From IMG/VR virus record IMGVR_UViG_3300029305_009755: a stretch of DNA of 20,000 bases. One strand, 5' to 3'. The notes below the pieces were generated by a model. The model saw nothing but the letters and a program-made list of their open reading frames with translations. It was not told the origin of the DNA and made no database searches. Shown here in pieces: positions 51 through 20,000 of this stretch. This DNA is from an uncultured virus (IMG/VR IMGVR_UViG_3300029305_009755) (Duplodnaviria; Heunggongvirae; Uroviricota; Caudoviricetes). The stretch's first letter is position 1, and each line of letters begins with the position of its first letter. Made by a program: the position numbers and the translations under genes.

Positions 51-1361
51 TCACAGGGTGTCGTCCTGAAGTCCGACCAGCCTGCTGTGCTGGATGAATG
101 AATCGATACGTGTCTCTGCACGCATGTGGATGACATTCAGTTCCTGCAGCTTGCGGGTGATGGAGGGGTTGGCGTTGCTGTAGAGTGCAACGGGTGTCAG
201 GATGGACATCCAGATATGGTCCAGATCGATAAGAGAGATATCTCCCATCTTGGTGGTGGAGACCTTCTTCTTGGAGTAGTCGAAGTTGAGGTTTCCGCTG
301 TGGATGATCGGGACCTTGTTGTATGTGTTGACATACAATCCCATGTCACGTCCAGGCATGGTCTTGACACCGTTGAAGTCCCTCTGGACGAAGACGGTAT
401 CGAGGAGGACCTGGTTGGCCTGCATGAGTGCTCCGAGCTTGTCCTCTGCGATGTTGGACATTGCCCAGATCTTGTTGTTGGGGCTTGCGGAGTCTGCCCA
501 GTTGACTGCGGCAGTCCTGTATGCGAGCCTCATTGCCTCAAGGGACAGGGTCTTTCCCTGCATGTCGATGACGTTTGCATCAAGGTTGGACTCTCCGTTT
601 GCACGGTAGTTGTAGAAGTCTCCGCGGGATGCGGTCCTTCCACCGTAGGGGGAGACCATTCCCTCATCGATGGTCTTTCCGTTGACGGTCCTTCCGATCT
701 CAGAGTATCCGGAGAGGAGCCTGTGGATTCCATTGAGTGAGGTCTCGATTCCGTTCAGGACAGGCTGGGGGTTCTCGATAGGCCTGAGGAGGGATTTATC
801 GAGCAGATCGGAGAAGTTCCTGGAGATCTTGTCGACGTAATCCTTCTTCTGGATGGTATCATCCTTGCTCTCGAGTGCTGCCAATCCAAGACCGTAGTCG
901 TAGGAAAGGGTGAGGTCCTTGAAGGGCTGCCTGAACTCAGTGACAGGCAACTTGATGGAGTCGGGGATGTAACCATCCTGGATGGTGGTTGCTCCGATTC
1001 CGATGAAGTCCTCGGGTGCGAAGTCGGTAAGACCCATCTGGATGTCCCTCTCGGTGGCAAGACCGTAGGAGGCCGCCTCGGTTGCGATCCTGACTCCTTC
1101 ATGCTGATAGGGACGGGCACCGATTGCGGTGAAGATGTTGTCGTTCATGAACATCGCGGCGGTGATGTACTTACCGTAGATCGCGTTGTGGTATCCGTTC
1201 AGGAAGTCGGTTGTATAGACCGCGGATCCTGCGGATTTGCTGATTGCTGTAGCGTATGCGCCGTTGTAGAAATCCTCAACGAGGTCCCACATGGCGTCGC
1301 CTCTCTGGGGATATGTGGTCCCCAGTTTGTCGCCCATTGTGACATAGTTTCCACTAGACAT
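51..1361 (-). CDS. Major capsid protein (HK97 fold, archaeal tailed-virus type)
   Basis: 436 aa, directly downstream of protease and scaffold. NAIYG...NIF..IG.RPYQHEGVRI resembles the N-terminal part of halovirus-type capsid proteins as I recall them. AGGTGA RBS at 1371-1366. Possible propeptide cleavage at ISK/SA. Confidence 0.85.
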   Translation of the reverse strand: MSSGNYVTMGDKLGTTYPQRGDAMWDLVEDFYNGAYATAISKSAGSAVYTTDFLNGYHNAIYGKYITAAMFMNDNIFTAIGARPYQHEGVRIATEAASYGLATERDIQMGLTDFAPEDFIGIGATTIQDGYIPDSIKLPVTEFRQPFKDLTLSYDYGLGLAALESKDDTIQKKDYVDKISRNFSDLLDKSLLRPIENPQPVLNGIETSLNGIHRLLSGYSEIGRTVNGKTIDEGMVSPYGGRTASRGDFYNYRANGESNLDANVIDMQGKTLSLEAMRLAYRTAAVNWADSASPNNKIWAMSNIAEDKLGALMQANQVLLDTVFVQRDFNGVKTMPGRDMGLYVNTYNKVPIIHSGNLNFDYSKKKVSTTKMGDISLIDLDHIWMSILTPVALYSNANPSITRKLQELNVIHMRAETRIDSFIQHSRLVGLQDDTL

Positions 1362-7074: not shown

Positions 7075-8463
7075 TCAATCTGCCGTCGTGGCCACCACAC
7101 GTCTGGACTTGCGATGACCGGAGTCTTCTGTCAACATGGGCGTCTCCTGACCTTTAGCCTCCACGACAACCCCATGTGCATTCAATAACATCGGGGCGAG
7201 ACTATAGCGTATCGAATCGAGGCAATGATCGTAATCCTTGATAGGTTCGTCTTTGAAGTTGCCATCCTTATCTGTATCGTAACAGTAATTGTTCAACTCC
7301 ATTATAGTGTTCTTACAGGAGGGATGGACGATCCAGTGGAATCCCTGAAGACGCTGGATACCGTTCCTCTTGGAATCGGGGCCCTTCAAGGCCGGTTTGA
7401 CGTTGGGTAGGGCCCACTTGGTCGGTTCGGCATCATCATCTTCTTCATCGACAAACCCATTGCGCACCTCATACAGTCCTGTTTGAAGCTCGTAGATGGA
7501 CTTGGGCTCCGCGGAATCGGCATAGATCGTTTCCTTACCATATCCCATAAGGGTGATCTGCTTGGCGATGTCCACGTTGCTCTTACCACGGACATACATC
7601 TCGTCATAGACCCAGAGCGTACGGGTCTTCATGTTCACCAGTACTGCTGCGAACGCATTGTACGATGCCACGAATCCGAAGTCCAATCCGTAGGTGGCGA
7701 CCACGTCCGGGTCCTCCAGAACCTCCCTGTAATCGAACTCCGATTCCTCCCAGTCCGTATACACCAGACCCTCGGCTATACCCCAGTCCCCATCACAGAT
7801 GACACGTGCCAGACGGGGGTTCTCGACGTACATGTCGAGATACCTCTGGATATCCACATCGTCCAGGAACTCGTTGTCCCTGAAGGTAGTGGTATCGTAG
7901 AAGACATTGCGTTTGGGTTTATCGAAGAACCTGGCCTTGAGCCAATGATGTTCGGACCAGGGATTGAATGTGATGGTGACCTGCTTCCACAGCCCGAGGG
8001 CGGGGTCCATCCTACCACGGATGGACATGCAGATCTTGTCGAACTCCTTCTCATTGGTGATCTGGGATGCTTCCTCGAACCATACCCAGCACAGATGACC
8101 TTTGGCCACGGAGATGGATGCGATCTTGGACGCATCATCGAGACCACGGAACAGTATCTTCTGTTTGGTGGGTTTGTACTCCAGCTCCACACGGGCCTTG
8201 TTGACGTTCCAGTATTCCGAGAAGCCCAATTGCTCTATGGCCCATTGGAGGTCCTGGAAACAGGAGTCCCTGATATCGGAGAAATAGCGGCGTATCACGA
8301 GGAGGTTCGACCCGGGATACGCCACCATCTTGGAAATGAAATCCAATGCGGCGGTCTTGGACTTCTTGGATCCCTTGGACCCTTTGACCACCCTGTAGAA
8401 GCACCTGGTGGTCAGGAAGTCATCATATCCGCGACCGACGATCTCCGATATTTTACGGGCCAT
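7075..8463 (-). CDS. terL: Terminase large subunit (PBSX/SPP1-like, Terminase_3 type)
   Basis: Walker A variant VVKGSKGSKKSKT, Walker B WVWFEEA, TFNPW, and nuclease motifs GLDFGF, ADSAEPKSI and DHCLDSIRY. Confidence 0.95.
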   Translation of the reverse strand: MARKISEIVGRGYDDFLTTRCFYRVVKGSKGSKKSKTAALDFISKMVAYPGSNLLVIRRYFSDIRDSCFQDLQWAIEQLGFSEYWNVNKARVELEYKPTKQKILFRGLDDASKIASISVAKGHLCWVWFEEASQITNEKEFDKICMSIRGRMDPALGLWKQVTITFNPWSEHHWLKARFFDKPKRNVFYDTTTFRDNEFLDDVDIQRYLDMYVENPRLARVICDGDWGIAEGLVYTDWEESEFDYREVLEDPDVVATYGLDFGFVASYNAFAAVLVNMKTRTLWVYDEMYVRGKSNVDIAKQITLMGYGKETIYADSAEPKSIYELQTGLYEVRNGFVDEEDDDAEPTKWALPNVKPALKGPDSKRNGIQRLQGFHWIVHPSCKNTIMELNNYCYDTDKDGNFKDEPIKDYDHCLDSIRYSLAPMLLNAHGVVVEAKGQETPMLTEDSGHRKSRRVVATTAD

Positions 8464-8465
8464 GT

Positions 8466-8879
8466 TCACTCTGGGATCTCTTCATCATCCCTGTCATCGT
8501 ATTGGAATCCAGGGGCGTTCTTCACTTTCTCGGAATCAGACTCTCCGTCGGGCGTGATATCGAATATGATCTGGGGAGTGTCCACTGTGACCGCCTGTTC
8601 CTTGGGGGGCGTATATCCTGCATATTCGAAGAGGAATCTGCGGGACTTGTCCTCACCGTTGGCGGCATCCAATCCAGCCTGGATGATGATACGGGTCTTC
8701 AGATCCGTGTTCTTGTCGGCGAATGACCTCAGGGGTTTCTCACCGTCCACATGTTCCACCGGACCGGAGGAGATGGGGGAGTCCAACACCGCGCGTATCA
8801 ACAGTTTCAGATCCTTGCGTTCACGGGCCCTGTATTGGGCATCCGTCTCACCGGGGAGTCTTTCGAGATTATCTATCAT
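8466..8879 (-). CDS. Putative terminase small subunit
   Basis: 137 aa, abutting terL, helical, with AANG..SRRFL..YAGYTP and PQIIFDI near the C-terminus. TTTATAAA box about 25 nt upstream. Confidence 0.6.
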   Translation of the reverse strand: MIDNLERLPGETDAQYRARERKDLKLLIRAVLDSPISSGPVEHVDGEKPLRSFADKNTDLKTRIIIQAGLDAANGEDKSRRFLFEYAGYTPPKEQAVTVDTPQIIFDITPDGESDSEKVKNAPGFQYDDRDDEEIPE

Positions 8880-9492: not shown

Positions 9493-12400
9493 TCACTCCT
9501 TTTCGGCGTCATCTCCCTGGAGAGGTTTCTCTCCGGGGAGGGGCGCTATATCTCCGAACATCGGCTGACCGTAGGGATGACCTTCCTTCTGGACCGCGAA
9601 CATACCCATCATCTCCCTGAGGGTGGGCATAGCAGATTTTTTCAAAGTGGTGTCGTAGCCCAGCTTCTCGATCTCCTTCAACTCCTGGCTCACATTGGAT
9701 ACGTTGGGTCCTGGAGATGCATCCGGAGTCTTAGCGGGTGCAGGTGCTGGATTCTCCTGAGCTTTATTGAACTCAGTAAGCGGATCGACATTCGGGCGCT
9801 CCTTTGGAGGATCATAGTCGCTGATCTTTGGGTCGGCAGTGTTGAACCTCTTGTTGAGGGTGTTGATCAGGAAATTGGGGTGGTCCTTGATACCGATCTG
9901 ATTCGCCAACGATCCCAGGGCCGTACCCATCAAACCACGATTGCCTCTCACCTGGTTCCTGATGTCCCTCAGAGGTGCTTGATCGTCCTCGAACAGTTTC
10001 TTGGCACCTAGGATGATATCATCATGCTTCTTCTTGTTCTCAGCCATCTTCGCTTCAAGGGTCGCCATCAACTCCTTGTCCTTCCTTGCCCTGGCCTTAT
10101 CGATCTCCATACGATCGGCCCTCATGGTGTCTTCAAGGGCCTTGTATTCGGGGTCCACCTTGGACATGTAGTGATCGTACGTCTCTGCGCCCGACTCGAA
10201 GAACCTGCGCCCTCCCATGTTGTATGCGGCATTGGCCAGATCATAAAGGTTGTTCTTGTACATGGGCGTCTTGCCGTACCAGATCAGATCCTTATCGTTG
10301 AGAGGTTCCTTGCCCTCATTCAATCCGAGGAGGTATGCTTCATTTTGGGCATCAGGTTTGAATGGGACCTTCTTATACCTGCTCATGCCATAGGCTTTGT
10401 CGATGTCCCTCTCGGGAATCTTCTCCATGAAGGGATTGGCCCCATGATACGGATCTCCGATCAGCTTGATCGATTTATCATCCTCACCATCCTTACTATC
10501 ATCTACCCAAGTATCGACGAGGGCGTTGTACTGATTGATTGCGGCATGGTAGTCTGGATGAAGGAATGAAAGCATATCCCCAGAGATCTTCTTAGGAGTC
10601 TTTCCGCGTAATGCATCAGAATCTCCTTTGAAATATGCAAGGATGTCCTTGAGGCTCTTCTCCTGTTTGTTCTTGACATTGGCCGGATCGAAATTGACCC
10701 TATCTTCCCTTATCTTACTCTGGGCCCTATATTTATCCAACAGATCTGGGTTGAGTATGTCCACACCCTGAGCATTCTTCACTATGAGTGGGAGATTCGA
10801 ACCTGTAGATATTCCCTGGAGGAACGAATTGGCCTTATCCAGTTTACCCGCATCCTCGGGAGACAGATTAGCCAGCACCTCTCCCAGTCCTGCTTTCGGA
10901 GGCTTCTTGGGGTTAAAGGTTCCGTCCGCTTTAGCCTGTTCTACAAGGGACTCAGATAATTTAGCTCTTAATTCGGGAACGGCCGAGAATATCTCTCTTT
11001 GGTATCTTTCAATAGGTGAATTCAATCCATTCAGGAACTCCTCATCATACATCTCCTCCCAAGAGGGTACGTTATCGGAGGTCTTGACTCCGCTGAGCTC
11101 CATCCTTCTCCTGAGATCACGGTCTGCCTGCTGACTCTCCCATGCACTGACCTTGGAAAGTTGGTCGGCACGCTCCAAGGCCTCCATAAGCTTGGGAGAG
11201 GTGACCTCATCGTCATCGGGCACTCCATCCAGACCCAGGCGGGACAGCATTCCAGTGACGTCACTATCACCACTCCTCCATGAATCGAAGAATCCGGCGA
11301 GCTGTTCATCAGATAGGTTCGCCAGATAGTTGCCAAGTGCAGACTGACCCTGTTCGGCACCTTTCATGGGGTTCCAACCACGGTCATCCCTATCCGGATC
11401 CAATCTCATGGAGTTCTGGATCTGGTCTATCCTATCCTGTTTGAACTTGTTCCTGTATTTGCCCTCTTTATCCCAATCCTCCAACATCCTGGTGGTTAGA
11501 TGCGCGAGCCTCATTCCGGTGGATTTATCGACAGATCCAGGGTATTTGGCCTCCAATGCATCCCAGAATGTCTTGGGGTCGAATGTCCCGCCCTCCTCTT
11601 CGGCCTTCTTTATCTTCTGGGCGATCTTGTTCTCGATCTTCTTGGTGAAGTGCTTGAGCAGCTCCCTGTCGACATCTTCATCGACATCAGCCATCATCTC
11701 CGAGATCCTCTGCTCGTTTTGCCTGCGGTCCATGGTCTTGGCCCTGTTGAGCTGACCTTCCTTCCTGTTCAGAAGCTTCTGGTATCCGGAAACGACCTGT
11801 TCGGGAGTCATCGTCTCGAACAGCGGGGTGCCGTCCTCATCCACTTTCAGATTGCCCTTCTCGTCATAATAGAGGGACCTGACCATCTTCTGAGCATGAT
11901 CGAAAGCGTCATCGATCATCCTGGTGACAGGATAGTTGGAATACTCCTGTCCATCCTCTCCTATGTAGCTCCTCTGGACCTTCGGGCTCAGGAACGCAGG
12001 GGCATCACCCGCAAGGGCACGTGTCACCATATGCTCGGCAAGCTGACTTGCCAATTCCTTGTTCCTGAGTTCCTCTCCTTTCCATTCCTCGTGACGATCC
12101 GCATCTTTCCTGTGGATCATATCATACATGCTGGAGACCAGATCGCGATTCTCGAAATCATCTTTGAACCTGTCGTACAATCCGTATGCGTCCTCGCCCA
12201 GCATCCTGGTGACATCGTTGGGGAGACGGTTCTTCATGAGGCCCCATGCGATACGCATCTCCATGGGGGCATCCATACGGATGGTCTCATCCATCATCTC
12301 ATCCAATTCAGCGACCGAAGCATTCGGATTGGTCTTCTGCAATGTCCTAAAGGCATCGTAGATATCGTTGAACACATACCTGAACCTGCCCTGCTGTGAT

Positions 12401-13020
12401 GTATTGAGGATATCCTCCAATCCGCGATTGTATGCATCCTGGTGACGACCTGCGATTATGTTCTCCTTATCCTTGGAGCTCAGGATGTACGGGACATCAG
12501 CGGGTACTCCAAGACCTGTACGGGGGTCGAGATCTTCTTCCATCAGGTCGTAGACAGATGCAGTCTGTGTCCCATCCTTCTTAAGATAGAACTTTCCCGG
12601 CATATGGGGGAAGTTGTACCATTTCAATCCACTCTCGCTCTGAGGTGCCCTTGAAGCAACAGTCTCATCACGTTCCTTCGGACGCTCCTGACCGATGTTC
12701 CCGTTACGGTCGATGTATGTGTTCAGCAATGCAGGCCTGATGTAACCCTGGAATGCTCCCCTCAGGTAATCGGGAGGCGCCTGTCCTTGATCCACGGCCC
12801 TCTGAGCCAGGTCCTTGAGGAACTGCCTCTTCCATCTGGCATAGCTCTTGAAACCATCCTCTCCATCTGCTTTCCTGATAGGTTTCGAAACAGCCTCCTT
12901 CACGGATCTGGTCACAGGCTCCGATTCCATATTCAGGGCACGTTTCATACCCTCTTCCCAAGGACGGATGGTACCCTTACGGATACCCATCATCCTTTCC
13001 ATATCCTCTTTGAATGTCAT
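9493..13020 (-). CDS. Large (1175 aa) hypothetical protein, candidate internal head/ejection protein
   Basis: Long uninterrupted ORF, charged and helical, no Cys. GGAG RBS overlapping the upstream stop. Terminal Met-rich motifs and K-G/K-A/K-S sites shared with the scaffold. Confidence 0.7.
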   Translation of the reverse strand: MTFKEDMERMMGIRKGTIRPWEEGMKRALNMESEPVTRSVKEAVSKPIRKADGEDGFKSYARWKRQFLKDLAQRAVDQGQAPPDYLRGAFQGYIRPALLNTYIDRNGNIGQERPKERDETVASRAPQSESGLKWYNFPHMPGKFYLKKDGTQTASVYDLMEEDLDPRTGLGVPADVPYILSSKDKENIIAGRHQDAYNRGLEDILNTSQQGRFRYVFNDIYDAFRTLQKTNPNASVAELDEMMDETIRMDAPMEMRIAWGLMKNRLPNDVTRMLGEDAYGLYDRFKDDFENRDLVSSMYDMIHRKDADRHEEWKGEELRNKELASQLAEHMVTRALAGDAPAFLSPKVQRSYIGEDGQEYSNYPVTRMIDDAFDHAQKMVRSLYYDEKGNLKVDEDGTPLFETMTPEQVVSGYQKLLNRKEGQLNRAKTMDRRQNEQRISEMMADVDEDVDRELLKHFTKKIENKIAQKIKKAEEEGGTFDPKTFWDALEAKYPGSVDKSTGMRLAHLTTRMLEDWDKEGKYRNKFKQDRIDQIQNSMRLDPDRDDRGWNPMKGAEQGQSALGNYLANLSDEQLAGFFDSWRSGDSDVTGMLSRLGLDGVPDDDEVTSPKLMEALERADQLSKVSAWESQQADRDLRRRMELSGVKTSDNVPSWEEMYDEEFLNGLNSPIERYQREIFSAVPELRAKLSESLVEQAKADGTFNPKKPPKAGLGEVLANLSPEDAGKLDKANSFLQGISTGSNLPLIVKNAQGVDILNPDLLDKYRAQSKIREDRVNFDPANVKNKQEKSLKDILAYFKGDSDALRGKTPKKISGDMLSFLHPDYHAAINQYNALVDTWVDDSKDGEDDKSIKLIGDPYHGANPFMEKIPERDIDKAYGMSRYKKVPFKPDAQNEAYLLGLNEGKEPLNDKDLIWYGKTPMYKNNLYDLANAAYNMGGRRFFESGAETYDHYMSKVDPEYKALEDTMRADRMEIDKARARKDKELMATLEAKMAENKKKHDDIILGAKKLFEDDQAPLRDIRNQVRGNRGLMGTALGSLANQIGIKDHPNFLINTLNKRFNTADPKISDYDPPKERPNVDPLTEFNKAQENPAPAPAKTPDASPGPNVSNVSQELKEIEKLGYDTTLKKSAMPTLREMMGMFAVQKEGHPYGQPMFGDIAPLPGEKPLQGDDAEKE

Positions 13021-13024
13021 ATGC

Positions 13025-13765
13025 TCATCTCCTTTCCATCATGGTCTTCAGATCAGGCATGAACCTCGGAGTCGGCTCATAAGGCCCCTCTGGCACCATG
13101 GGTCTTGCAGAATCCCTGTAGAATATCTCGTTTTCAAGGTCACGATCATAATCCCACTTATCGGCAGATCTGTCCCTTTGAGAATATGGTGCATATGCGT
13201 TTTCTTTGTCGAATTTTTCCTCATCTCTCGCATCGGCTGCACGATCCTCGGTGTAATTGACCTTTCCACCGATGTCTGGAGCGGAACCGTGAGTCTGATA
13301 TGAGTCCCTCCTGAGTTCCACTTCGGGGTTCTCTTCAGGGAATCCGAATATCCTATCCTTCGCCATGGAATTCGGTTCTCCCAACACCTCTCCTGTGAAA
13401 GGATCTGTGAAGAATGGATCTGCTACTGTTTCCGATGTGCCTATGGATGGGAGGGATCTTTCATTGCCCTGGACGTCCATGGCACGGTTGCTGGTCATTG
13501 AGGTGGTGTCGTTCCTGGCACCACGCCCTGTGGGGAATCCCAACCTCTCCCTCTTCGCGATCCCGCAGGCCTTCTCGTAGACCTCCTGCCTGCCCTTCTC
13601 GAACATGGCCTTGAATGACTCCATGCCATCGGGCGAGATGTCCTCTGTGAGGTCCTCTTGACCGTGATCGTCCTCAGGGGACTCGGAAGACACCATCACG
13701 GTGAGTGATATGACCGTCTGGCCCTCTTCCATAGGGGCATCACACGGTTTCTCCGTATCTGTCAT
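13025..13765 (-). CDS. Acidic hypothetical protein, candidate internal head protein
   Basis: 246 aa from ATG 13765; the longer track ORF would overlap the recombinase. TATAATAA box about 25 nt upstream. Motifs MESFKAMFEKG and MPDLKTMM. Confidence 0.65.
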   Translation of the reverse strand: MTDTEKPCDAPMEEGQTVISLTVMVSSESPEDDHGQEDLTEDISPDGMESFKAMFEKGRQEVYEKACGIAKRERLGFPTGRGARNDTTSMTSNRAMDVQGNERSLPSIGTSETVADPFFTDPFTGEVLGEPNSMAKDRIFGFPEENPEVELRRDSYQTHGSAPDIGGKVNYTEDRAADARDEEKFDKENAYAPYSQRDRSADKWDYDRDLENEIFYRDSARPMVPEGPYEPTPRFMPDLKTMMERR

Positions 13766-13781
13766 GAGACGAGGATGGCTG

Positions 13782-13799
13782 TCGTGGTTATTATATGAA
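13782..13799 (-). promoter_or_regulatory. TATA-like promoter with AATAACCACGA motif
   Basis: The minus strand reads TTCATATAATAACCACGA, ending 16 nt before ATG 13765. The 11-mer recurs at 16678-16688. Confidence 0.45.
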
Positions 13800-13901
13800 T
13801 GCACGTTCGTACAGTCGCCGAGAAAACACCTGCTATGCTCATATACATCGTAACGAGTTACATATAACATGGATACGATTACTGCACCTTCAACCGCACG
13901 C

Positions 13902-14801
13902 ATGATGACCGCCATATACGCACAATCCGACCTGGATTCGGACATATCCGTGTTCATATCGTCCCTGAGGGTCAAGGGACGCAGGGAATCCACCCTCAGG
14001 ACCTACAGGGAGGCCCTCAGAAGCGTTTTCCGCACCCTGGAATCCGATTATGGAATGGTGGTCGACCCCAGGACGCTCTCCGCACAGGATTTCGGGTACC
14101 TCAGGTCGGTTCTGACCGTGTGTGACAGCTCGAAGAAGCTCTATCTGCTGGTATTGGGGCTGTTCGTGGGCTTCCTGACCGGCTACAACCCCCGCCAGGA
14201 AGCGGATCTGCTGTGGAACGAGGACGACAAGCGCAGGCTGTTCATCACGCCCGAGCAGTTCAAGGTCATGATGTACCGCGGGACCCCTCTGGAACGCCTG
14301 ATCCTGTCCCTCGGTGCATACATGGGGCTGAGGAGGTCGGAGATGGCGGGTATAAGGCTCGGTGACCTGTCCAACGGGCACCTCAAGGTCAGAGGGAAGG
14401 GACATGGGCCCGATGGCAAGACCATGGATCTGTTCGTACCGCTGAAGGTTCAGAGGTGCATCGACGCCTGGATGGTGGAGAGGGAGCGCATAGTAACGAC
14501 CACAGGCTCTCTGGACGACCATCTGATCCTGTCACAGGGCAGGAACATCGGCAAGGGCACCACGGGCAACAGGATAGGGGATATCGTCAAGGCCCTGGGT
14601 AGAAGATGCGGGGTGACATTGACCGCACATTCCCTGCGCAGGCTCCACGCCACGGCATTGTACTCTCAAGGGGTGGATCTGAACACGATCAGGCTGATGA
14701 TGAGGCACGCATCGTTGAACACGACGCTCACATGCTATATCCAGGCCAACCCCGAGAACATGACATCCGCCAGGAAGGCGTTGGAGGGGGTGCTGGATTA
14801 A
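13902..14801 (+). CDS. Tyrosine recombinase (integrase/XerC-D family)
   Basis: Catalytic set GLRRSE (R), VRGKG (K), HSLRR (H-x-x-R), MRH (H) and TLTCY (Y). N-terminal SAM-like domain (RESTLRTY). Alternative start at 13869. Confidence 0.93.
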   Translation: MMTAIYAQSDLDSDISVFISSLRVKGRRESTLRTYREALRSVFRTLESDYGMVVDPRTLSAQDFGYLRSVLTVCDSSKKLYLLVLGLFVGFLTGYNPRQEADLLWNEDDKRRLFITPEQFKVMMYRGTPLERLILSLGAYMGLRRSEMAGIRLGDLSNGHLKVRGKGHGPDGKTMDLFVPLKVQRCIDAWMVERERIVTTTGSLDDHLILSQGRNIGKGTTGNRIGDIVKALGRRCGVTLTAHSLRRLHATALYSQGVDLNTIRLMMRHASLNTTLTCYIQANPENMTSARKALEGVLD

Positions 14802-14808
14802 GGGGTTT

Positions 14809-14828
14809 GAAGGGGCCGAAGCCCCTTC
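14809..14828. terminator. Hairpin between convergent recombinase and fibre genes
   Basis: GAAGGGGC-CGAA-GCCCCTTC, a perfect 8-bp stem. Confidence 0.7.
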
Positions 14829-14834
14829 GGGTCA

Positions 14835-16283
14835 TCAGGGAGAGACGACGACGGTGATTGCACCGAGATCGACGTTTCCGGAGATGGTGACATTGTTGGT
14901 GTCGGTGTAGACCACTTCGGCGTAGATGATGGCGCCGGTTGTGGTGTTGTAGACCGAGACCTGGGGGTACTCGATACCAAGGTTGTGGGTGACTACCTGT
15001 GTGGTACCTGCTGAAGAGAAGACCTCCTTGCGCCTGACCTTCTTGACCTCTGCGGTGAAGTCGGAGATCTTGGCTGCAGTCAGAGCGGGGATGTCTCCTG
15101 CCTCGAGTGCGGCACCGGAAGTGACGATACCCTCGGTGTTGACAGTGACCTTGGTGTAGGTTCCGCCGGTCTGGGTGACCTTTGCGGCCTTGCCTGCGAT
15201 GGCGGAGTCCAGCTGTCCCATCTTGGTGTCGTATGTGGACTGGTCGACCTTATCTGCGACATCATCCTCGAGTGTACCGATCTTGGTGGAGTTGGAAGAT
15301 ACGTTGCCCTCGATCTCCTGGACCTTGGCATTGTATGCGGTCTGATCGACCTTGGTTCCGATGGACTGGTTGAGTGTGGAGACCTGTCCGTTGACGAACT
15401 CGGTGGTTGCATATGCGGTGAGGTCTGTGATTCCACCGAGGGCATCCCATGCGTTTCCGTCCCAGACGACGTTGGTTCCCGCAGGTCCGTATGTGGATGC
15501 AGCTGTGATGTTGTAGACATCTCCCTTTGCTGCTCCAGAGGGCAGTGCGGACTCGTTGGCAACCGTTCCCATGACACGGTAGACGGATGCGACCTTCGCA
15601 TTGATCGCAGAGTCAACCTCGCCCTTGGAGTAGGTCTCGGTCTTCTTGTAATAGTCGGCGAGTTTGGTGTCGACCTGGGTGGAGGTGTAGACATCAGCAG
15701 AGTTGGCCTTCGCGTTGATCTTGCCCTCGAGCTCGGTCTTGAGAGACTCTGCCTCGGAGTCGGTGAATGCATCCGCCTTGTCCTGCTTGGTGGCGATGTT
15801 GGTCTCCAATGCGGAGACACGGGTCAGAAGGGAATCTCCACCCTCTCCGGTGGATCCGACTGCGGTCTTCAGGGCTGCGATGTCGGTCTTGTTCTGTGTG
15901 TTGTCTCCCTCGAGTGTAGAAACCTTGCCCTCGAGAGTGTCGATGTCACCCTCAGCGGTATCGACCCTTCCAGTAAGGGCGGTGATGGCGGACTCGTTGG
16001 CTGCAGCCTTGGTTGCGTTTGCCTCGATGGAGGACTGTGCTGTCGTCTTCCAGGTCTCCAGTGCTGTGACACGTCCTGCGACCTCGTCTGCAGAGGACGC
16101 CTGACCGAGTTTGACGACTGCGGCACCGGTATCGACGTACAGACCAGCATCATCACCTGTGACGTACACGATCCTTCCAGGATAACTGGAACCGGGTTTG
16201 GAATCGACGTTCTCCACGGCAACGTTCTTGATCTCGTTGCCTTTCAAATCAATGTTCGTTGCGAACTCTAGATTTTTCGACAT
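14835..16283 (-). CDS. Tail/head fibre-like structural protein
   Basis: 482 aa with heptad coiled-coil repeats (RVTALE, RVDTAE, KVSTLE, RVSALE), VVWDGNAWDALGG, GTYTKVTVNTEGIVTSG..DIP.L.A.KI and C-terminal VTHNLG..YPQVSVY, all common in phage fibre proteins. Confidence 0.75.
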   Translation of the reverse strand: MSKNLEFATNIDLKGNEIKNVAVENVDSKPGSSYPGRIVYVTGDDAGLYVDTGAAVVKLGQASSADEVAGRVTALETWKTTAQSSIEANATKAAANESAITALTGRVDTAEGDIDTLEGKVSTLEGDNTQNKTDIAALKTAVGSTGEGGDSLLTRVSALETNIATKQDKADAFTDSEAESLKTELEGKINAKANSADVYTSTQVDTKLADYYKKTETYSKGEVDSAINAKVASVYRVMGTVANESALPSGAAKGDVYNITAASTYGPAGTNVVWDGNAWDALGGITDLTAYATTEFVNGQVSTLNQSIGTKVDQTAYNAKVQEIEGNVSSNSTKIGTLEDDVADKVDQSTYDTKMGQLDSAIAGKAAKVTQTGGTYTKVTVNTEGIVTSGAALEAGDIPALTAAKISDFTAEVKKVRRKEVFSSAGTTQVVTHNLGIEYPQVSVYNTTTGAIIYAEVVYTDTNNVTISGNVDLGAITVVVSP

Positions 16284-16419
16284 GTCTATCTATCCTGTAC
16301 CCAAAAAGATGGGTTACAGATGTGGATAGGTCCTGTGATATTTAGACGTGGACCCTGATAAGATGGGGTTTGCCCCAATCCAGGGGCTGGGTGTTCGATC
16401 ACTTGTCGGGCCTGATCTC

Positions 16420-16662
16420 CTAGTGTTCCTCTTCACACTCCGCGAGACGGGTCTGGACCATGAGGGCCATCTCCGCCTTGGAGGGCCTTCCGGGACCCCT
16501 GCGCGAATACATCCTCGGATTCATGCTCACGGAGCAACGGGATACGTGCTTCTTGGCATATTCATCGGTACAGTCAGCGAGCGATTTCAGGCAATAGGGA
16601 CAGACTAGGACATCCGGTAACGCCATGTCCTCCCCGCAGCATTTGCATTTCACAATATGCAT
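16420..16662 (-). CDS. Small Zn-finger protein with AT-hook-like motif
   Basis: CKCC, CPYC..H...C and RRGPGRPSK. It is the only called gene ending in TAG. Confidence 0.6.
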   Translation of the reverse strand: MHIVKCKCCGEDMALPDVLVCPYCLKSLADCTDEYAKKHVSRCSVSMNPRMYSRRGPGRPSKAEMALMVQTRLAECEEEH

Positions 16663-16733
16663 GATGATCAAGAGATTTCGTGGTTATTGAACTTTAACCC
16701 CTAGGGCTCCGATGATGGGTGAGTGAAGAATAA

Positions 16734-16760
16734 GGAAGGGGGGTGGAGATCCCCCCTTCC
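16734..16760. terminator. Strong GC hairpin
   Basis: GGAAGGGGGG-TGGAGAT-CCCCCCTTCC, a perfect 10-bp stem. Confidence 0.65.
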
Positions 16761-16971
16761 GACCTTTCTTGGAGACATGAATCTAAGCAGGAGCTTTAGA
16801 CGGGTGAAAGGTAGCCGTCAAGGTGGCCTGCCTGAGTAGATGATATGAGACTCGCTGTATTTATAACCAGGCCCCCGAGTCGGATTGGAATTATAAAAGG
16901 ATATTCCCGATTTTCTCCTTAAATAGCCTTCACGTTGGAATAATTGACCACAAAAGGTCAGGAGGTGTACC

Positions 16972-17922
16972 ATGGCAGAGGAGATGACACTCAACGAGCA
17001 TCACAGCGAAGTGATGCACCAGCTGTGTGATATCGACAAAGATGTGGGAACTCTCATTAAAATGGAGGCTGAGGAATCTATGACAGGCGCATACGACAGC
17101 GGAATGCTGGCTGGAATGCTTGCAAACAAGAACAACGACAACGACATCTGGGCATACCTCGCCAACTGTCGCAATAACGGCAGTTGGGGAGATGGGGATG
17201 GACTCATGTTCCTCCTCCTGGTGCTGCTCTTGGGCGGCGGAGGCTTCGGAGGCTGGGGCAACAGGGGCCTCGACGGAGTCGCAGGTGTCGACAGGACCGT
17301 CGTCAACACCAGCAACTACGAGATGCTCATGGGAGCCATCCGTGGCAACGACCAGCAGATGCAGACCCTTGCGGCATCCCTGAACTGTGACATCGGACAG
17401 CTCAAGGCCGCACTCTGCGGAATCGACAAGCAGATCGCACTCACTCAGGGCGACATCACCCACGCTCTCGACCAGTGTTGCTGCAGGCTCGGATCCAAGA
17501 TTGACCACAACCTGTTCGAACTGAGCAAGCAGTCATCCGAGGGATTCTGCGGAACCAACCTCAACATCGAGAGGACACAGAATGCACTCCAGAGGCAGCT
17601 CAGCGAATGTTGCTGTGAGCAGAGGGTCGCTACCGCAGACCTCAAGTACAACATGGCATCTCAGTTCGCTGCACAGTCCTTCACGATCCAGCAGGCCTTT
17701 GCAGATCAGAACGCATATCTTGCCAAGGAGTTCTGCGCGATTAAGAGCAGGGAAGATGCCAGGGAGATCCAGGACCTTCGCGACAAGCTCGCAGACGCCA
17801 AGGCTGATGCCAGGGCTCTTGCCACAGTCTCTGCCGTGAACTCTGCAAGGACATTCAACGGAACTTTGGACGCCACGACTGGCGTGTTCTCCGGGAACGT
17901 GCCCCAGAATGTCTTTCCTTGA
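16972..17922 (+). CDS. Gly/Cys-rich membrane-anchored coiled-coil protein of unknown function
   Basis: GGAGGTG RBS. Hydrophobic LMFLLLVLLL followed by GGGGFGGWG, then QCCC and ECCCE motifs and a C-terminal IQDLRDKL coiled coil. The pattern resembles an uncharacterised family I recall from gut phages. Confidence 0.8.
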   Translation: MAEEMTLNEHHSEVMHQLCDIDKDVGTLIKMEAEESMTGAYDSGMLAGMLANKNNDNDIWAYLANCRNNGSWGDGDGLMFLLLVLLLGGGGFGGWGNRGLDGVAGVDRTVVNTSNYEMLMGAIRGNDQQMQTLAASLNCDIGQLKAALCGIDKQIALTQGDITHALDQCCCRLGSKIDHNLFELSKQSSEGFCGTNLNIERTQNALQRQLSECCCEQRVATADLKYNMASQFAAQSFTIQQAFADQNAYLAKEFCAIKSREDAREIQDLRDKLADAKADARALATVSAVNSARTFNGTLDATTGVFSGNVPQNVFP

Positions 17923-18001
17923 GGAAGAAGCGGTCACGTCTCCACTGATAACCGATGAAGAATCAGTACTCCAAGTAACCAGCCTGGAGTACTGGTTCTA
18001 A
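17909..18001 (+). CDS. Micro-ORF or +1-frame extension MSFLEEEAVTSPLITDEESVLQVTSLEYWF
   Basis: Not in the ORF track. Overlaps the stop of the upstream gene in the +1 frame and ends immediately before a hairpin. A homologous copy at 18772-18858 has synonymous differences. Confidence 0.5.
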   Translation: MSFLEEEAVTSPLITDEESVLQVTSLEYWF

Positions 18002-18002
18002 G
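17949..18002 (+). repeat. Direct repeat copy 1 (54 nt, 42/54 identical to 18806-18859)
   Basis: Ungapped alignment by eye: taaccgatgaagaatcag...agcctggagtactggttctaag versus taaccgaagaagagccag...agcctggaatactggttctaag. Confidence 0.85.
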
Positions 18003-18022
18003 AGAGGGGTTCAACCCCTCTC
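18002..18022. terminator. Hairpin between convergent genes
   Basis: GAGAGGGGTT-C-AACCCCTCTC, overlapping the HNH stop codon. Confidence 0.7.
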
Positions 18023-18680
18023 AAACTTTCCTGTGGTTTCCAACGGGAGATATAGTCAAGGCATCTTCAACTGACCATCCCCTCTTTAAACGACCGATTA
18101 TAGTTGCGGGCTGGATCCCTACCTCCCTACCCCAATCTGATACAGATTTAGTCTCTCCGTGCCAATCCAGGTAATGATTATTGCGTTTATTGTTACTTTG
18201 AATGATATTTGAAGTCCATCTGCAATTTTCAGGACTATATGGGCCATCATTATCAATACGATCCAAGGATAGATCTTTAGCCCACCCATTAGCGTAACTC
18301 CATTGAAGAAATGCAGGAAAATTATCTTCCCACTCTTCACATACACATATGCCACGCCCGCCATATCTAATATAACTGGGATCGTTTGGATTGTTACAAC
18401 GGTTACGCATTCCAATCCATCTCCTGTAGATAACCTTGCCAGAAGGGGTTTCTCTACCATCTCTAATCCTTCTTTCAAACTTAGGTGATCTACGAAAATC
18501 GTCAAGCATGCATCCACAAGAACGCGTGTTTCCAGAAGTTAGAACTCTCGAAGTTTTTTGAATCGTTTTTCCACAATCGCATATGCAAGTCCATAATGAT
18601 GAGCCTTGCAATTCTTCGCCACTGTAACATATAACTTTCAATCTGCCAAATTTTTGTCCAGATAGATCCTTTTTATACAT
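18021..18680 (-). CDS. Phage-type HNH (His-Me finger) homing endonuclease
   Basis: DLSGQKFGRL, WTCICDCG, TRSCGC, YGGRGICVCEEW and LSLDRIDNDGPYSPENCRW..QSNNKRNN. Visibly AT-richer than the head module. Confidence 0.88.
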   Translation of the reverse strand: MYKKDLSGQKFGRLKVICYSGEELQGSSLWTCICDCGKTIQKTSRVLTSGNTRSCGCMLDDFRRSPKFERRIRDGRETPSGKVIYRRWIGMRNRCNNPNDPSYIRYGGRGICVCEEWEDNFPAFLQWSYANGWAKDLSLDRIDNDGPYSPENCRWTSNIIQSNNKRNNHYLDWHGETKSVSDWGREVGIQPATIIGRLKRGWSVEDALTISPVGNHRKV

Positions 18681-18762
18681 CGCAATCTACAACCTCATCG
18701 CAGAATTATGCGGAAACACACTGCGATGGGATGTGCTTTCGGGTTTGCAACCCCTATCCGCA
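18678..18762 (-). ncRNA. Candidate structured 5' leader RNA of the HNH gene
   Basis: Three-stem junction UGCGGA/UCCGCA, GGGUU/AACCC and AAGCACAU/GUGUGUUU. The loop CCCAUCGCA is complementary to two downstream UGCGAUG sites. Confidence 0.5.
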
Positions 18763-18771
18763 AGTTATACT

Positions 18772-18858
18772 ATGCAACTCAGGTATAATACCTTTCCTCA
18801 ACAAGTAACCGAAGAAGAGCCAGCAGCTCAGGTGATGAGCCTGGAATACTGGTTCTAA
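18772..18858 (+). CDS. Micro-ORF or orphan gene 3' end MQLRYNTFPQQVTEEEPAAQVMSLEYWF
   Basis: Not in the ORF track. Homologous to 17909-18001 and followed by a hairpin. Confidence 0.4.
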   Translation: MQLRYNTFPQQVTEEEPAAQVMSLEYWF

Positions 18859-18859
18859 G
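18806..18859 (+). repeat. Direct repeat copy 2
   Basis: Aligns without gaps to 17949-18002. Confidence 0.85.
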
Positions 18860-18874
18860 GGGGATAAATCCCCC
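18859..18874 (+). terminator. Hairpin after repeat copy 2
   Basis: GGGGGA-TAAA-TCCCCC followed by CAAACT, as in copy 1. Confidence 0.6.
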
Positions 18875-18880
18875 CAAACT

Positions 18881-18909
18881 CCTTATTTTTACTGCGATTA
18901 ACAACAAGG
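18881..18909. other. Candidate tyrosine-recombinase crossover site
   Basis: CCTTATTTTTA-CTGCGAT-TAACAACAAGG: 11-bp inverted arms (9/11 match) around a 7-bp asymmetric spacer. Confidence 0.45.
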
Positions 18910-19382
18910 CTGACGCATCTGCTGTGTCTACCCTCCAATCCACCGTAAATACGATCAATACATATGCCATCAAATCTGCAGGTACCTNNNNNNNNNNTCA
19001 GAGTGGTGAAGCATTCCCAATTGGGGCAATTTTCATTTCAGTGGATTCTACTAATCCTGCAACATCTCTGGGTTATGGTACATGGGTAGCATTTGCACAA
19101 GGGCGTTGTCTGATTGGTGTGGGAACATCTGATCAAACATTTACAGCAGGTGCAACGGGTGGAAAATCTACACACAAGCTAACTGTATCGGAAATGCCTG
19201 CTCATACACATACCGCAAAATATTCATCATCAGGTAATGGAGCTAATACATATGTAATTGGTTCAGCTCAGAATAATAGTTCCGCGTCTAAAACTGTGAC
19301 GACAGATAGTACAGGAGGATCCTCTGCACATAACAATCTTCAACCATATGTCGTTGTATATATGTGGAAAAGGACTGCGTAA
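18891..19382 (+). CDS. Start-less tail-fibre/baseplate C-terminal cassette (T4 gp10 C-terminal-like domain), interrupted by an assembly gap
   Basis: Reads TAINNKADASAVSTLQSTV... with no ATG or RBS. After the gap it reads FPIGAIFISVDSTNP..GTW..GRCLIGVG..GATGG..H.LT..EMPAHTH..HNNLQPYVVVYMWKRTA. Frame continuity across the Ns is unverified. Confidence 0.7.
   Translation, partial: TAINNKADASAVSTLQSTVNTINTYAIKSAGTXXXXQSGEAFPIGAIFISVDSTNPATSLGYGTWVAFAQGRCLIGVGTSDQTFTAGATGGKSTHKLTVSEMPAHTHTAKYSSSGNGANTYVIGSAQNNSSASKTVTTDSTGGSSAHNNLQPYVVVYMWKRTA
18988..18997. other. Assembly gap (10 N, true length unknown)
   Basis: Run of n in the sequence. Confidence 0.99.
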
Positions 19383-19388
19383 ATAATT

Positions 19389-19410
19389 TAAGGGCCCATA
19401 TGGGCCCTTA
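19389..19410. terminator. Perfect 22-bp palindrome, bidirectional terminator candidate
   Basis: TAAGGGCCCATATGGGCCCTTA between two convergent TAA stops. Confidence 0.75.
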
Positions 19411-19411
19411 T

Positions 19412-19999
19412 TTATAGCAAATTGTATACACATGAGCCAAACTGTAATGTAGCCGAATCGACCCTTACATAAGTCCCGCCCAAGTAAATACTTAGCTTAC
19501 ACTGTGCTAAATCTTTTGCAGATATTGTAAGAGATCCACTTCTATCGGTGTGACCACTTAAGTCGGTTACTGTTGACCCCGTGGTGATTTTTATACATAG
19601 CTCGTCATAAGACCCGTAATTTGAGTATACGCTATAATTTAATGTTGCAGACTTCCCGCCTGGATTGTTTATGTTCCATTTAGCAACGAATGTATTTGGA
19701 CCAGAAGTAACAGCCTCTATTGTCTGAGTTATTTCCAAATCACTGAGCGTGTCAGCCCAATATCCCTGTCCGCTCCCGTCACTCGTCCAGACCTGTCCAG
19801 CCGTTCCAGCAGTTGTGGGCGGATAGATTGTCACAGTTGTCACCCCCGTAATGTGTCCCTGAGCATCAAACTTCAGTCTTGGAACTGCTGTAGCACTTCC
19901 GATATAGGATGTCTGTGCCGTGACCGAATTTGAATGATTGATGGTCTTCCCATCGTCGGCGATGGTGATTCCAGTTCCTCCGACGATGTCGTTCTGCTT
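19412..19999 (-). CDS. Tail fibre protein, 3' part (starts beyond the window)
   Basis: Frame is open to the window edge: KQNDIVGGTGITIADDGKTINHSNSVTA..FDAQGHITG..TAGTAGQVWTSDGSGQGYW, followed by an AT-richer beta-rich tip domain. Confidence 0.75.
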   Translation of the reverse strand, partial: KQNDIVGGTGITIADDGKTINHSNSVTAQTSYIGSATAVPRLKFDAQGHITGVTTVTIYPPTTAGTAGQVWTSDGSGQGYWADTLSDLEITQTIEAVTSGPNTFVAKWNINNPGGKSATLNYSVYSNYGSYDELCIKITTGSTVTDLSGHTDRSGSLTISAKDLAQCKLSIYLGGTYVRVDSATLQFGSCVYNLL

Positions 20000-20000
20000 G

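Follow-up and report, generated by a model that had tools for sequence, protein, structure and literature searches.

How can a fibre-like reading frame be put to use if it has no start codon and begins directly behind a terminator? This question is raised by one end of a 20,000-nucleotide (nt) stretch of DNA, here called the window, from an uncultured tailed virus (IMG/VR record IMGVR_UViG_3300029305_009755). A sequence-only reading of the window had proposed that a single plus-strand fibre frame is exchanged by inversion with a minus-strand fibre gene that it faces, in the manner of the Mu G and P1 C segments. The locus is real and more elaborate than was proposed, and the anatomy first described is partly an artefact of scaffolding. 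The best explanation, to which we would give a probability of roughly 60%, is a shufflon-type locus for switching tail-fibre tips, of which this region would be one end. Fibre C-terminal cassettes without promoter or start codon are marked at their 5' edge by a short asymmetric site, with a hairpin or oligo-T terminator ahead of each cassette. Site S1 precedes cassette 1, S2 the Gp10_C tip at 18999-19382 and a predicted S3 the tip at 19999-19412, and the same site is seen in frame inside a full-length fibre gene in the relative C199 only. Two copies in opposite orientation could recombine, which would invert the intervening DNA and bring another tip behind the constant N-terminal part, with a changed receptor specificity as the result. 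The likely enzyme would be a XerA-like tyrosine recombinase encoded at 13869-14801.

The window was compared with Logan contigs of four public runs (X1, X3, X8 and X10), which were placed on positions 13000-20000. Of the sampled words, 99% and 92% are present in two of the runs, both animal faecal metagenomes, and 31% in the remaining two, which are gut metagenomes. These data are contigs, which cannot separate shuffled isomers from repeats or co-occurring strains. The features at the end of the window are as follows.

18797-18891 (+): terminator that would insulate the cassette, made up of the second 63-nt repeat copy, the hairpin at 18859-18874 and an oligo-T tract
18888-18902 (+): site S1, TTTACTGCGATTAAC, read TTT ACT GCG ATT AAC (F-T-A-I-N), the proposed crossover site
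18903-18987 (+): start of silent cassette 1, NKADASAVSTLQSTVNTINTYAIKSAGT..., interrupted by the gap
18988-18997: scaffold gap of 10 N in place of 1,080 nt or more, which comprise the remainder of cassette 1, a further stretch and S2
hidden in the gap (+): site S2, TTTACTGCGATTAACAG, before the Gp10_C tip in contigs of X1 and X3
18999-19382 (+): silent cassette 2, a Gp10_C-type tip (PF21939, E 2.2e-30, residues 5-126)
19389-19410: perfect 22-nt palindrome, a two-way terminator between converging tips (z -3.79)
19412-20000 (-): cassette 3, fibre module and tip, the converging fibre-like frame 19999-19412
about 20001-20014 (-): predicted site S3, judged by X1 record 8 and by CAGAACGAC, the loose end of X3 at 18908

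The plus-strand frame that had been taken for one gene is interrupted by the ten N at 18988-18997. An X1 contig of 1,181 nt aligns to 18888-18987 by its letters 2-101 only, and cassette 1 continues on it for at least 1,080 nt; the X1 contig that carries 18998-20000 has 17 letters before it, TTTACTGCGATTAACAG. Because the X1 contigs diverge at the gap and the Gp10_C tip comes with its own TTTACTGCGATTAACAG, two separate cassettes, cassette 1 and the Gp10_C tip, have been joined by scaffolding, and either of them has a copy of the site. The single frame is therefore a scaffold artefact. At least three cassettes are carried by the window, on both strands. Several of the earlier observations hold up well: no in-frame ATG, GTG or TTG occurs from 18789 to GTG 18924, a 6-bp G+C hairpin (18859-18874) and then an oligo-T tract stand directly before the site, and the perfect 22-bp palindrome faces the minus-strand fibre frame as described. 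The Gp10_C-like tip is also genuine, scoring 106.8 bits on PF21939 against a curated cut-off of 27 and matching ten PHROG tail families as well. Its first in-frame canonical start is GTG 19041, and there is none before the domain; its relatives in IMG/VR, at most 55% identical, are uninformative. Homologs of cassette 1 (P0206-P0208) run on as SGQVWTSDGSGAGKW and a variable tip, and the module of cassette 3 is 82% identical to P0015. In X3, another Gp10_C-type tip variant (...PHNNLQPYIT) joins the window sequence at 19356 and departs from it at 19386, which points to more cassettes or strains.

The site itself differs from the one first drawn. The 29-mer CCTTATTTTTA-CTGCGAT-TAACAACAAGG occupies 18881-18909, and no second copy with three mismatches or fewer occurs in the window, but the 11-bp arms assigned to it are not conserved among the other copies. 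What is conserved is TTTACTGCGATTAAC (peptide FTAIN), with a short, asymmetric core A-C/G-T-GCGATTAAC. Nor is the pairing of the arms at 9 of 11 positions distinctive, as inverted repeats with 11-nt arms at 9/11 or better and a spacer of 6-8 number 31 in the window against a mean of 6.6 in 20 block shuffles. The arms are coincidental, the left one being the oligo-T tract of the terminator and the right one coding sequence of the cassette.

Contigs of X1 and X3 break at the site. An X3 contig matches it up to 18908 (...AACAACAAG) and then runs on as CAGAACGAC, which matches the minus-strand end of the window, C-AAG-CAG-AAC-GAC-ATC or (N)KQNDIV. Because this is exactly the junction predicted for an inverted partner with AINNK beyond 20000, as the earlier note had expected, we infer an inverted, in-frame copy of the site (S3) at about 20001-20014, reading TAINNK followed by QNDIVGG. 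X1 record 8 extends exactly 26 nt beyond base 20000, which corresponds to 30 nt before the first base that differs from S1. By k-mer reasoning on a k=31 graph, S3 would share these 30 nt, and with them a left flank of the silent type, with S1. Since S3 seems to share this flank, what was taken for a minus-strand fibre gene may be another silent cassette. In both X1 and X3 a second contig ends in the same hairpin and site (2 mismatches) behind a different upstream gene end, so several left and right flanks come together at the site. P0002, a fibre-like protein of the same virus, was considered as an inverted partner, as it holds CTGCGAT at 15604 (-), in frame as SAINAK; it was rejected because the flanks mismatch the site, the family is conserved full-length in 17 relatives and CTGCGAT occurs nine times in the window.

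The full architecture can be seen in C199, a 79,031-nt contig of a Candidatus Methanomethylophilaceae metagenome-assembled genome (MAG) that is related to the virus of the window. Identities are 67% for the major capsid protein, 67% for the portal-position protein, 53% for the large terminase subunit, 60% for P0002, 55% for the recombinase and 72% for p316, a conserved protein next to the locus. C199 looks viral throughout, with methylases, a VapE-like protein, an SNF2 helicase, YqaJ, ThyX and a Tad2-like protein, and no host housekeeping domain was found in the 33 flanking C199 open reading frames scanned. It holds seven cassettes, in converging and diverging pairs, and two classes of site.

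C199 class-1 site, T-W-W-A-S-TGCGATTAAC: 38427+, 38517+, 39900-, 43759-, 45282+
C199 class-2 site, AAGGCAATTAAY (K-A-I-N): 33408+, 34344-, 37378+, 38402-, 45462+

The site at 43759- lies in frame within a fibre gene of 1118 amino acids (aa), at residue 494 (...NPVQNKAVYSAIN followed by TINQ...), with 504 open codons upstream. The other C199 sites head frames of 102-369 codons or sit within them (38517+, 45462+). Class-1 sites head three start-less cassettes, on both strands; class-2 sites head four short tip-like frames, the fifth copy (45462) lying inside the 45282 cassette. No copy of the class-2 site was found in the window or in G001, the nearest IMG/VR record (30,024 nt). At the cassette heads the frame opens just 5-47 codons upstream, and the 89 open codons before 39900- overlap a neighbouring 145-aa gene in another frame. 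Ahead of tip C (39900-) stand the end of an unrelated gene, with its stop codon, and a T8 run; the tip has no in-frame canonical start before a conserved SAGQAGQVWTSDG. Sites 43759- and 45282+ enclose the promoter and the constant part of the fibre, and sites 38427+ and 43759- enclose tips. C199 also carries a diversity-generating retroelement (L149:3502-5182, L184:387-5249), with a reverse transcriptase (PF00078, E 1.6e-16) that has the LPIG...SQ motif and YMDD, and with a 156-nt repeat pair of 85% identity, one copy of which is at the 3' end of the site-bearing 1118-aa fibre gene.

Short in-frame sites at cassette 5' edges were aligned or read in 12 copies. GCG-ATT-AAC is found in all seven class-1 copies (five on C199 together with S1 and S2) and GCA-ATT-AAY in all five class-2 copies, while an unrelated metagenome contig encodes TAINNKAD with ACG GCA ATC AAC and P0002 of this virus encodes SAIN with TCT GCG ATC AAT. 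Because the codons are invariant among the copies and unrelated DNA uses other codons, conservation of the site is, judging from these sequences, at the DNA level. Searching 174 genomes of the host family for the pattern TWWASTGCGATTAAC gave five matches, all on C199 at 38.4-45.3 kb, against one for the reversed control; the 12-15-mer of the site occurs five times on C199 and in none of the 173 other family genomes searched. The exact site and the window end were absent from the IMG/VR and JGI metagenomes searched, GenBank phages gave no match, and the loose-end sequences of the run contigs had no match in G001 and the window. The minus-strand tip, the cassette alignment and p316 gave nothing usable as protein queries against IMG/VR, and a second metagenome scan yielded one unrelated 1.4-kb contig only. 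The bare 15-mer has 64 matches in IMG/VR, which were dismissed as chance after BLAST against the window showed no related locus.

The 497-aa constant part of the C199 fibre was used as a query; among the best 150 of its 13,772 matches, P0211 shares 60% identity with it over 502 aa, and four AIN-motif contexts in two of these 150 proteins were inspected. After VYSAIN, P0211 reads SKMDKMTVDSAP... (SKMDKMTVDSAPASGSANLVTSGGVFTAINN...), which is the type of C199 silent cassette B. Two full-length fibres end in sequence that resembles silent tip C of C199: P0015, with 42% identity over 172 aligned positions, and P0304, with 34% over 140. The junction of the tip C type lies at VYTAIN in P0304, and P0015 has no AIN motif before the homologous part. 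By these alignments, cassette types that are silent in one virus are C-termini of full-length fibres in others, once behind the same constant part. A constant N-terminal part that ends in the site is seen in C199, P0211 and P0304.

The candidate enzyme lies upstream of the array.

13869-14801 (+): XerA/XerC-like tyrosine recombinase, 310 aa, candidate invertase (PF00589, E 3.5e-16)

It also matches the NCBIfam model XerA_Arch (E 8e-22, below the cut-off of that model) and the XerC-like PDB entry 4a8e (E 1.6e-11), and it is the only PF00589 match in G001. Its homolog, likewise the only PF00589 match on C199, lies mid-genome, 1.1 kb from a cassette pair. The XerA-like recombinase is the only candidate seen and is probably the enzyme of the switch. 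Serine recombinases of PF00239 have no match in G001 or on C199 (two matches of G002 sit on another contig). With no serine invertase in these two sequences and at least three cassettes here, the two-state geometry of Mu G and P1 C does not apply, and what survives of the sequence-only reading is its general idea that start-less tips are swapped at a short in-frame site, with a predicted inverted partner just past 20000. Inversion is suggested by the opposite orientations of the sites, by their in-frame geometry, by a terminator for each cassette and by a site too short for homologous exchange.

Other explanations must be weighed against this one. The locus could be a static mosaic, with leftovers of past fibre exchange at the motif VTSGGVYTAINNK that were imported together with an HNH gene, and with no programmed switching. 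We consider this unlikely, even though a drop in GC from about 55% to about 42% occurs at 18000, next to an HNH gene that has a diverged 63-nt repeat on either side, the peptide motif is frequent inside fibres, the contigs show no orientation polymorphism and no fused cassette 1 was found. A static mosaic sits poorly with synonymous site positions that are invariant in 12 copies from two viruses whose proteins are 55-72% identical, with silent frames that stay open over 102-369 codons in DNA of 39-45% GC, and with a terminator of its own for each cassette. The drop in GC at about 18000 is not a mis-join, as a single unbroken X1 contig spans 14506-18903. Nor does it indicate a recent import: window cassettes have 42-45% GC against about 54-58% in the remaining window, and because the C199 silent cassettes are all low in GC too (39-45% against 59.5% contig-wide), the step is a feature of the family.

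Two further readings dispense with inversion in other ways. Gene callers start P0206 (MNSAINNK...) and P0207 (MFVTAINN...) right at the motif, and the cassettes might accordingly be small independent genes, the hairpin and TTATTTTTA acting as a terminator and an archaeal TATA-like promoter and the tips being translated alone from GTG 18924 or a non-canonical start. GTG 18924 is indeed about 24 nt past ATTAAC, and ATT codons stand at 18885 and 18897. This is very unlikely, however, given that canonical starts are lacking before both the Gp10_C domain and the SAGQAGQVWTSDG of C199 tip C, that the first ATG lies at varying distances from the motif, that a tip of 127-260 aa would have no anchor domain, and that the same motif is internal in full-length fibres. 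Conversion driven by a nuclease, similar to mating-type switching, would have the HNH enzyme cut the site and repair copy a silent cassette into the expressed gene. The HNH gene (18021-18680) is directly upstream of S1, and a site of 12-15 nt would fit a homing-endonuclease target. On C199, however, homologs of HNH are located near 25.7 and 61 kb, away from the arrays, and it is the recombinase that is beside them; identity between expressed and silent copies ends at the site, which leaves no upstream homology for repair; and the opposite orientations of cassettes are a prediction of inversion. Conversion is thus highly improbable.

A shufflon-type switch remains the preferred reading, and several points weigh against it. 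The conserved site is only 12-15 nt long and has no dyad symmetry. No direct evidence of both orientations was found in the contigs, which repeats alone can break, and a DNA search of the 174 family genomes with the C199 array as query gave no near-identical isomer pair, only relatives of the retroelement region. All three window cassettes may be silent, given the 30 nt that S3 would share with S1 by the k-mer reasoning. The homologs of cassette 1 are all short proteins (3 of 3, 203-262 aa), with none of the three fused to a constant part. A search of the 34 kb available for this virus (G001 and window) did not reveal the constant part of the fibre, which may lie beyond base 20000. Finally, the recombinase is 4 kb from S1, and its family occurs in 39 of the 174 host-family genomes at 32-40% identity, as is found for ordinary integrases. 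Because the family is so common among elements in host genomes, the recombinase may be just an integrase.

The gene content of the rest of the window is that of a tailed virus.

51-1361 (-): major-head-like protein
7075-8469 (-): large terminase subunit (PF04466, E 6e-54)
9493-13020 (-): 1175-aa protein, of tape-measure size and position, without a family match
14835-16283 (-): P0002, complete 482-aa fibre-like protein
16972-17922 (+; may start near 16867): p316, Cys-rich conserved protein, function unknown (phrog_16490)
17940-18022 (+): first copy of the 63-nt repeat (end of a small frame, ...SLEYWF and stop) and hairpin (-16.7 kcal/mol, z -2.78)
18021-18680 (-): HNH endonuclease (phrog_374, E 3.7e-63), between the repeat copies; GC 40.8%

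G001 is identical to the window up to base 15954, where G001 ends; this end falls within the coiled-coil repeats of P0002 and leaves the switch locus outside G001. Full-length homologs of P0002, at 52% and 60% identity, are on two Candidatus Methanomethylophilaceae MAG contigs, and one database homolog bears the name of this family. Calling the virus archaeal is reasonable, with the link to the host coming from MAG binning and homologies, among them the recombinase relatives in 39 of the 174 family genomes, and the locus is best read as part of a tailed virus of about 80 kb that would infect gut Methanomethylophilaceae (archaea). In X3, 14475-15543 is split into pieces of low depth, which suggests strain variation in the C-terminal half of P0002.

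The recombinase gene lies between p322 and P0002 rather than between cassettes. The two repeat copies are 75% identical (17940-18002 and 18797-18859). Cassette arrays are accompanied by p316, whose C199 homolog is beside the recombinase and a cassette pair, and a homolog at 38% identity precedes a complete fibre gene in L148. L148 is another MAG contig of the Methanomethylophilaceae; its fibre gene (L148:10840-11886) is complete, begins with an ATG of its own and is directly 3' of the p316 homolog on the same strand. At the equivalent position, the window has the HNH gene and a start-less cassette. X8 and X10 contain p316 and HNH only (16943-18763), at 95-99% identity (99% for HNH) and with divergence at 18763; they otherwise have short motif matches, and are uninformative on the cassette array. 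The silent cassettes of the window (18000-20000) and of C199 are 14-20 GC points below their genomes, and foreign origin, absent transcription or a composition rich in S, T and N could be the cause. C199, a viral contig that was binned with an archaeon, also encodes a Tad2-like anti-Thoeris domain at 72017-72484 (L185:12017-12484, minus; PF11195, E 4.4e-20), besides ThyX and two DNA methylases.

Taken jointly, the parts would allow a larger reading, which we offer tentatively and consider more doubtful than not: a two-tier combinatorial host-range engine in methanogen viruses. Its parts would be one Xer-like recombinase and two orthogonal classes of 12-nt sites, A-S-T-GCGATTAAC and AAGGCAATTAAY. 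The sites would arrange linker modules and tips as a nested hierarchy on one fibre, the constant part with its promoter would itself be invertible, and in at least one relative a diversity-generating retroelement would mutagenise one alternative C-terminus of that fibre.

To our knowledge, few viruses of gut methanogens have been isolated, and little is known about how they track the variable surfaces of their hosts. A multi-cassette tip switch, if true, would extend inversion-based fibre switching from haloarchaeal myoviruses to host-associated methanogens, and in one relative a retroelement would act on the same fibre as well. It would also offer a very short, well-defined candidate recombination site and a recombinase for archaeal genetics. 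Care must be taken with metagenomic assemblies of such viruses, which break or are mis-scaffolded exactly at these loci. No description of such a switch in methanogen viruses was found in the literature searched, which excluded the main 2023 compendium on these viruses.

Switching of this kind is known from several systems. In the R64 shufflon, Rci-driven inversions among asymmetric sites (one conserved arm and a spacer) swap the C-termini of the PilV adhesin; R64 is a bacterial conjugative plasmid, the protein is at a pilus tip, and the site and protein families are unrelated to those of this virus. In Mu G (Gin), P1 C (Cin) and p15B Min, serine invertases swap alternative fibre C-termini behind a constant part. 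Converging tips are shared with the present locus, as inversion would be; the enzyme family of those systems, PF00239, has no match in G001 or C199.

The closest functional analogue is the Rin shufflon of Bifidobacterium prophages, which has a tyrosine invertase, constant Rc and variable Rv cassettes and 11-bp asymmetric rix sites (PMC6109161). In both systems a receptor-binding protein has several C-terminal cassettes that lack a start and lie on both strands, each headed by a short, conserved asymmetric site; a tyrosine recombinase is encoded nearby, and there is a constant N-terminal part (here seen in the relative C199). The present locus differs in its archaeal host, its unrelated site sequence and its two classes of site, in a recombinase that is 1-4 kb from the cassettes instead of flanking them, and in the inverted sites that themselves enclose the constant part and promoter of C199. 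For Rin, inversion is an observed event, whereas here it is predicted from sequence. The closest archaeal case is Int1 of phiCh1 and phiH1, a two-state tail-fibre inversion of haloarchaeal myoviruses (PMC6210493, PMC8371274). These too are archaeal tailed viruses with a Xer-type tyrosine recombinase, but the recombinase is between two fibre genes inside the invertible segment, whereas here it is outside, and crossover takes place among many short intragenic repeats to give two states. Here there is instead one site of 12-15 nt per cassette, with at least three cassettes (and 10 sites in the relative). The kind of switch is thus already known from phiCh1/phiH1 Int1 and the Rin shufflon, and what is new here is its variant in viruses of methanogens.

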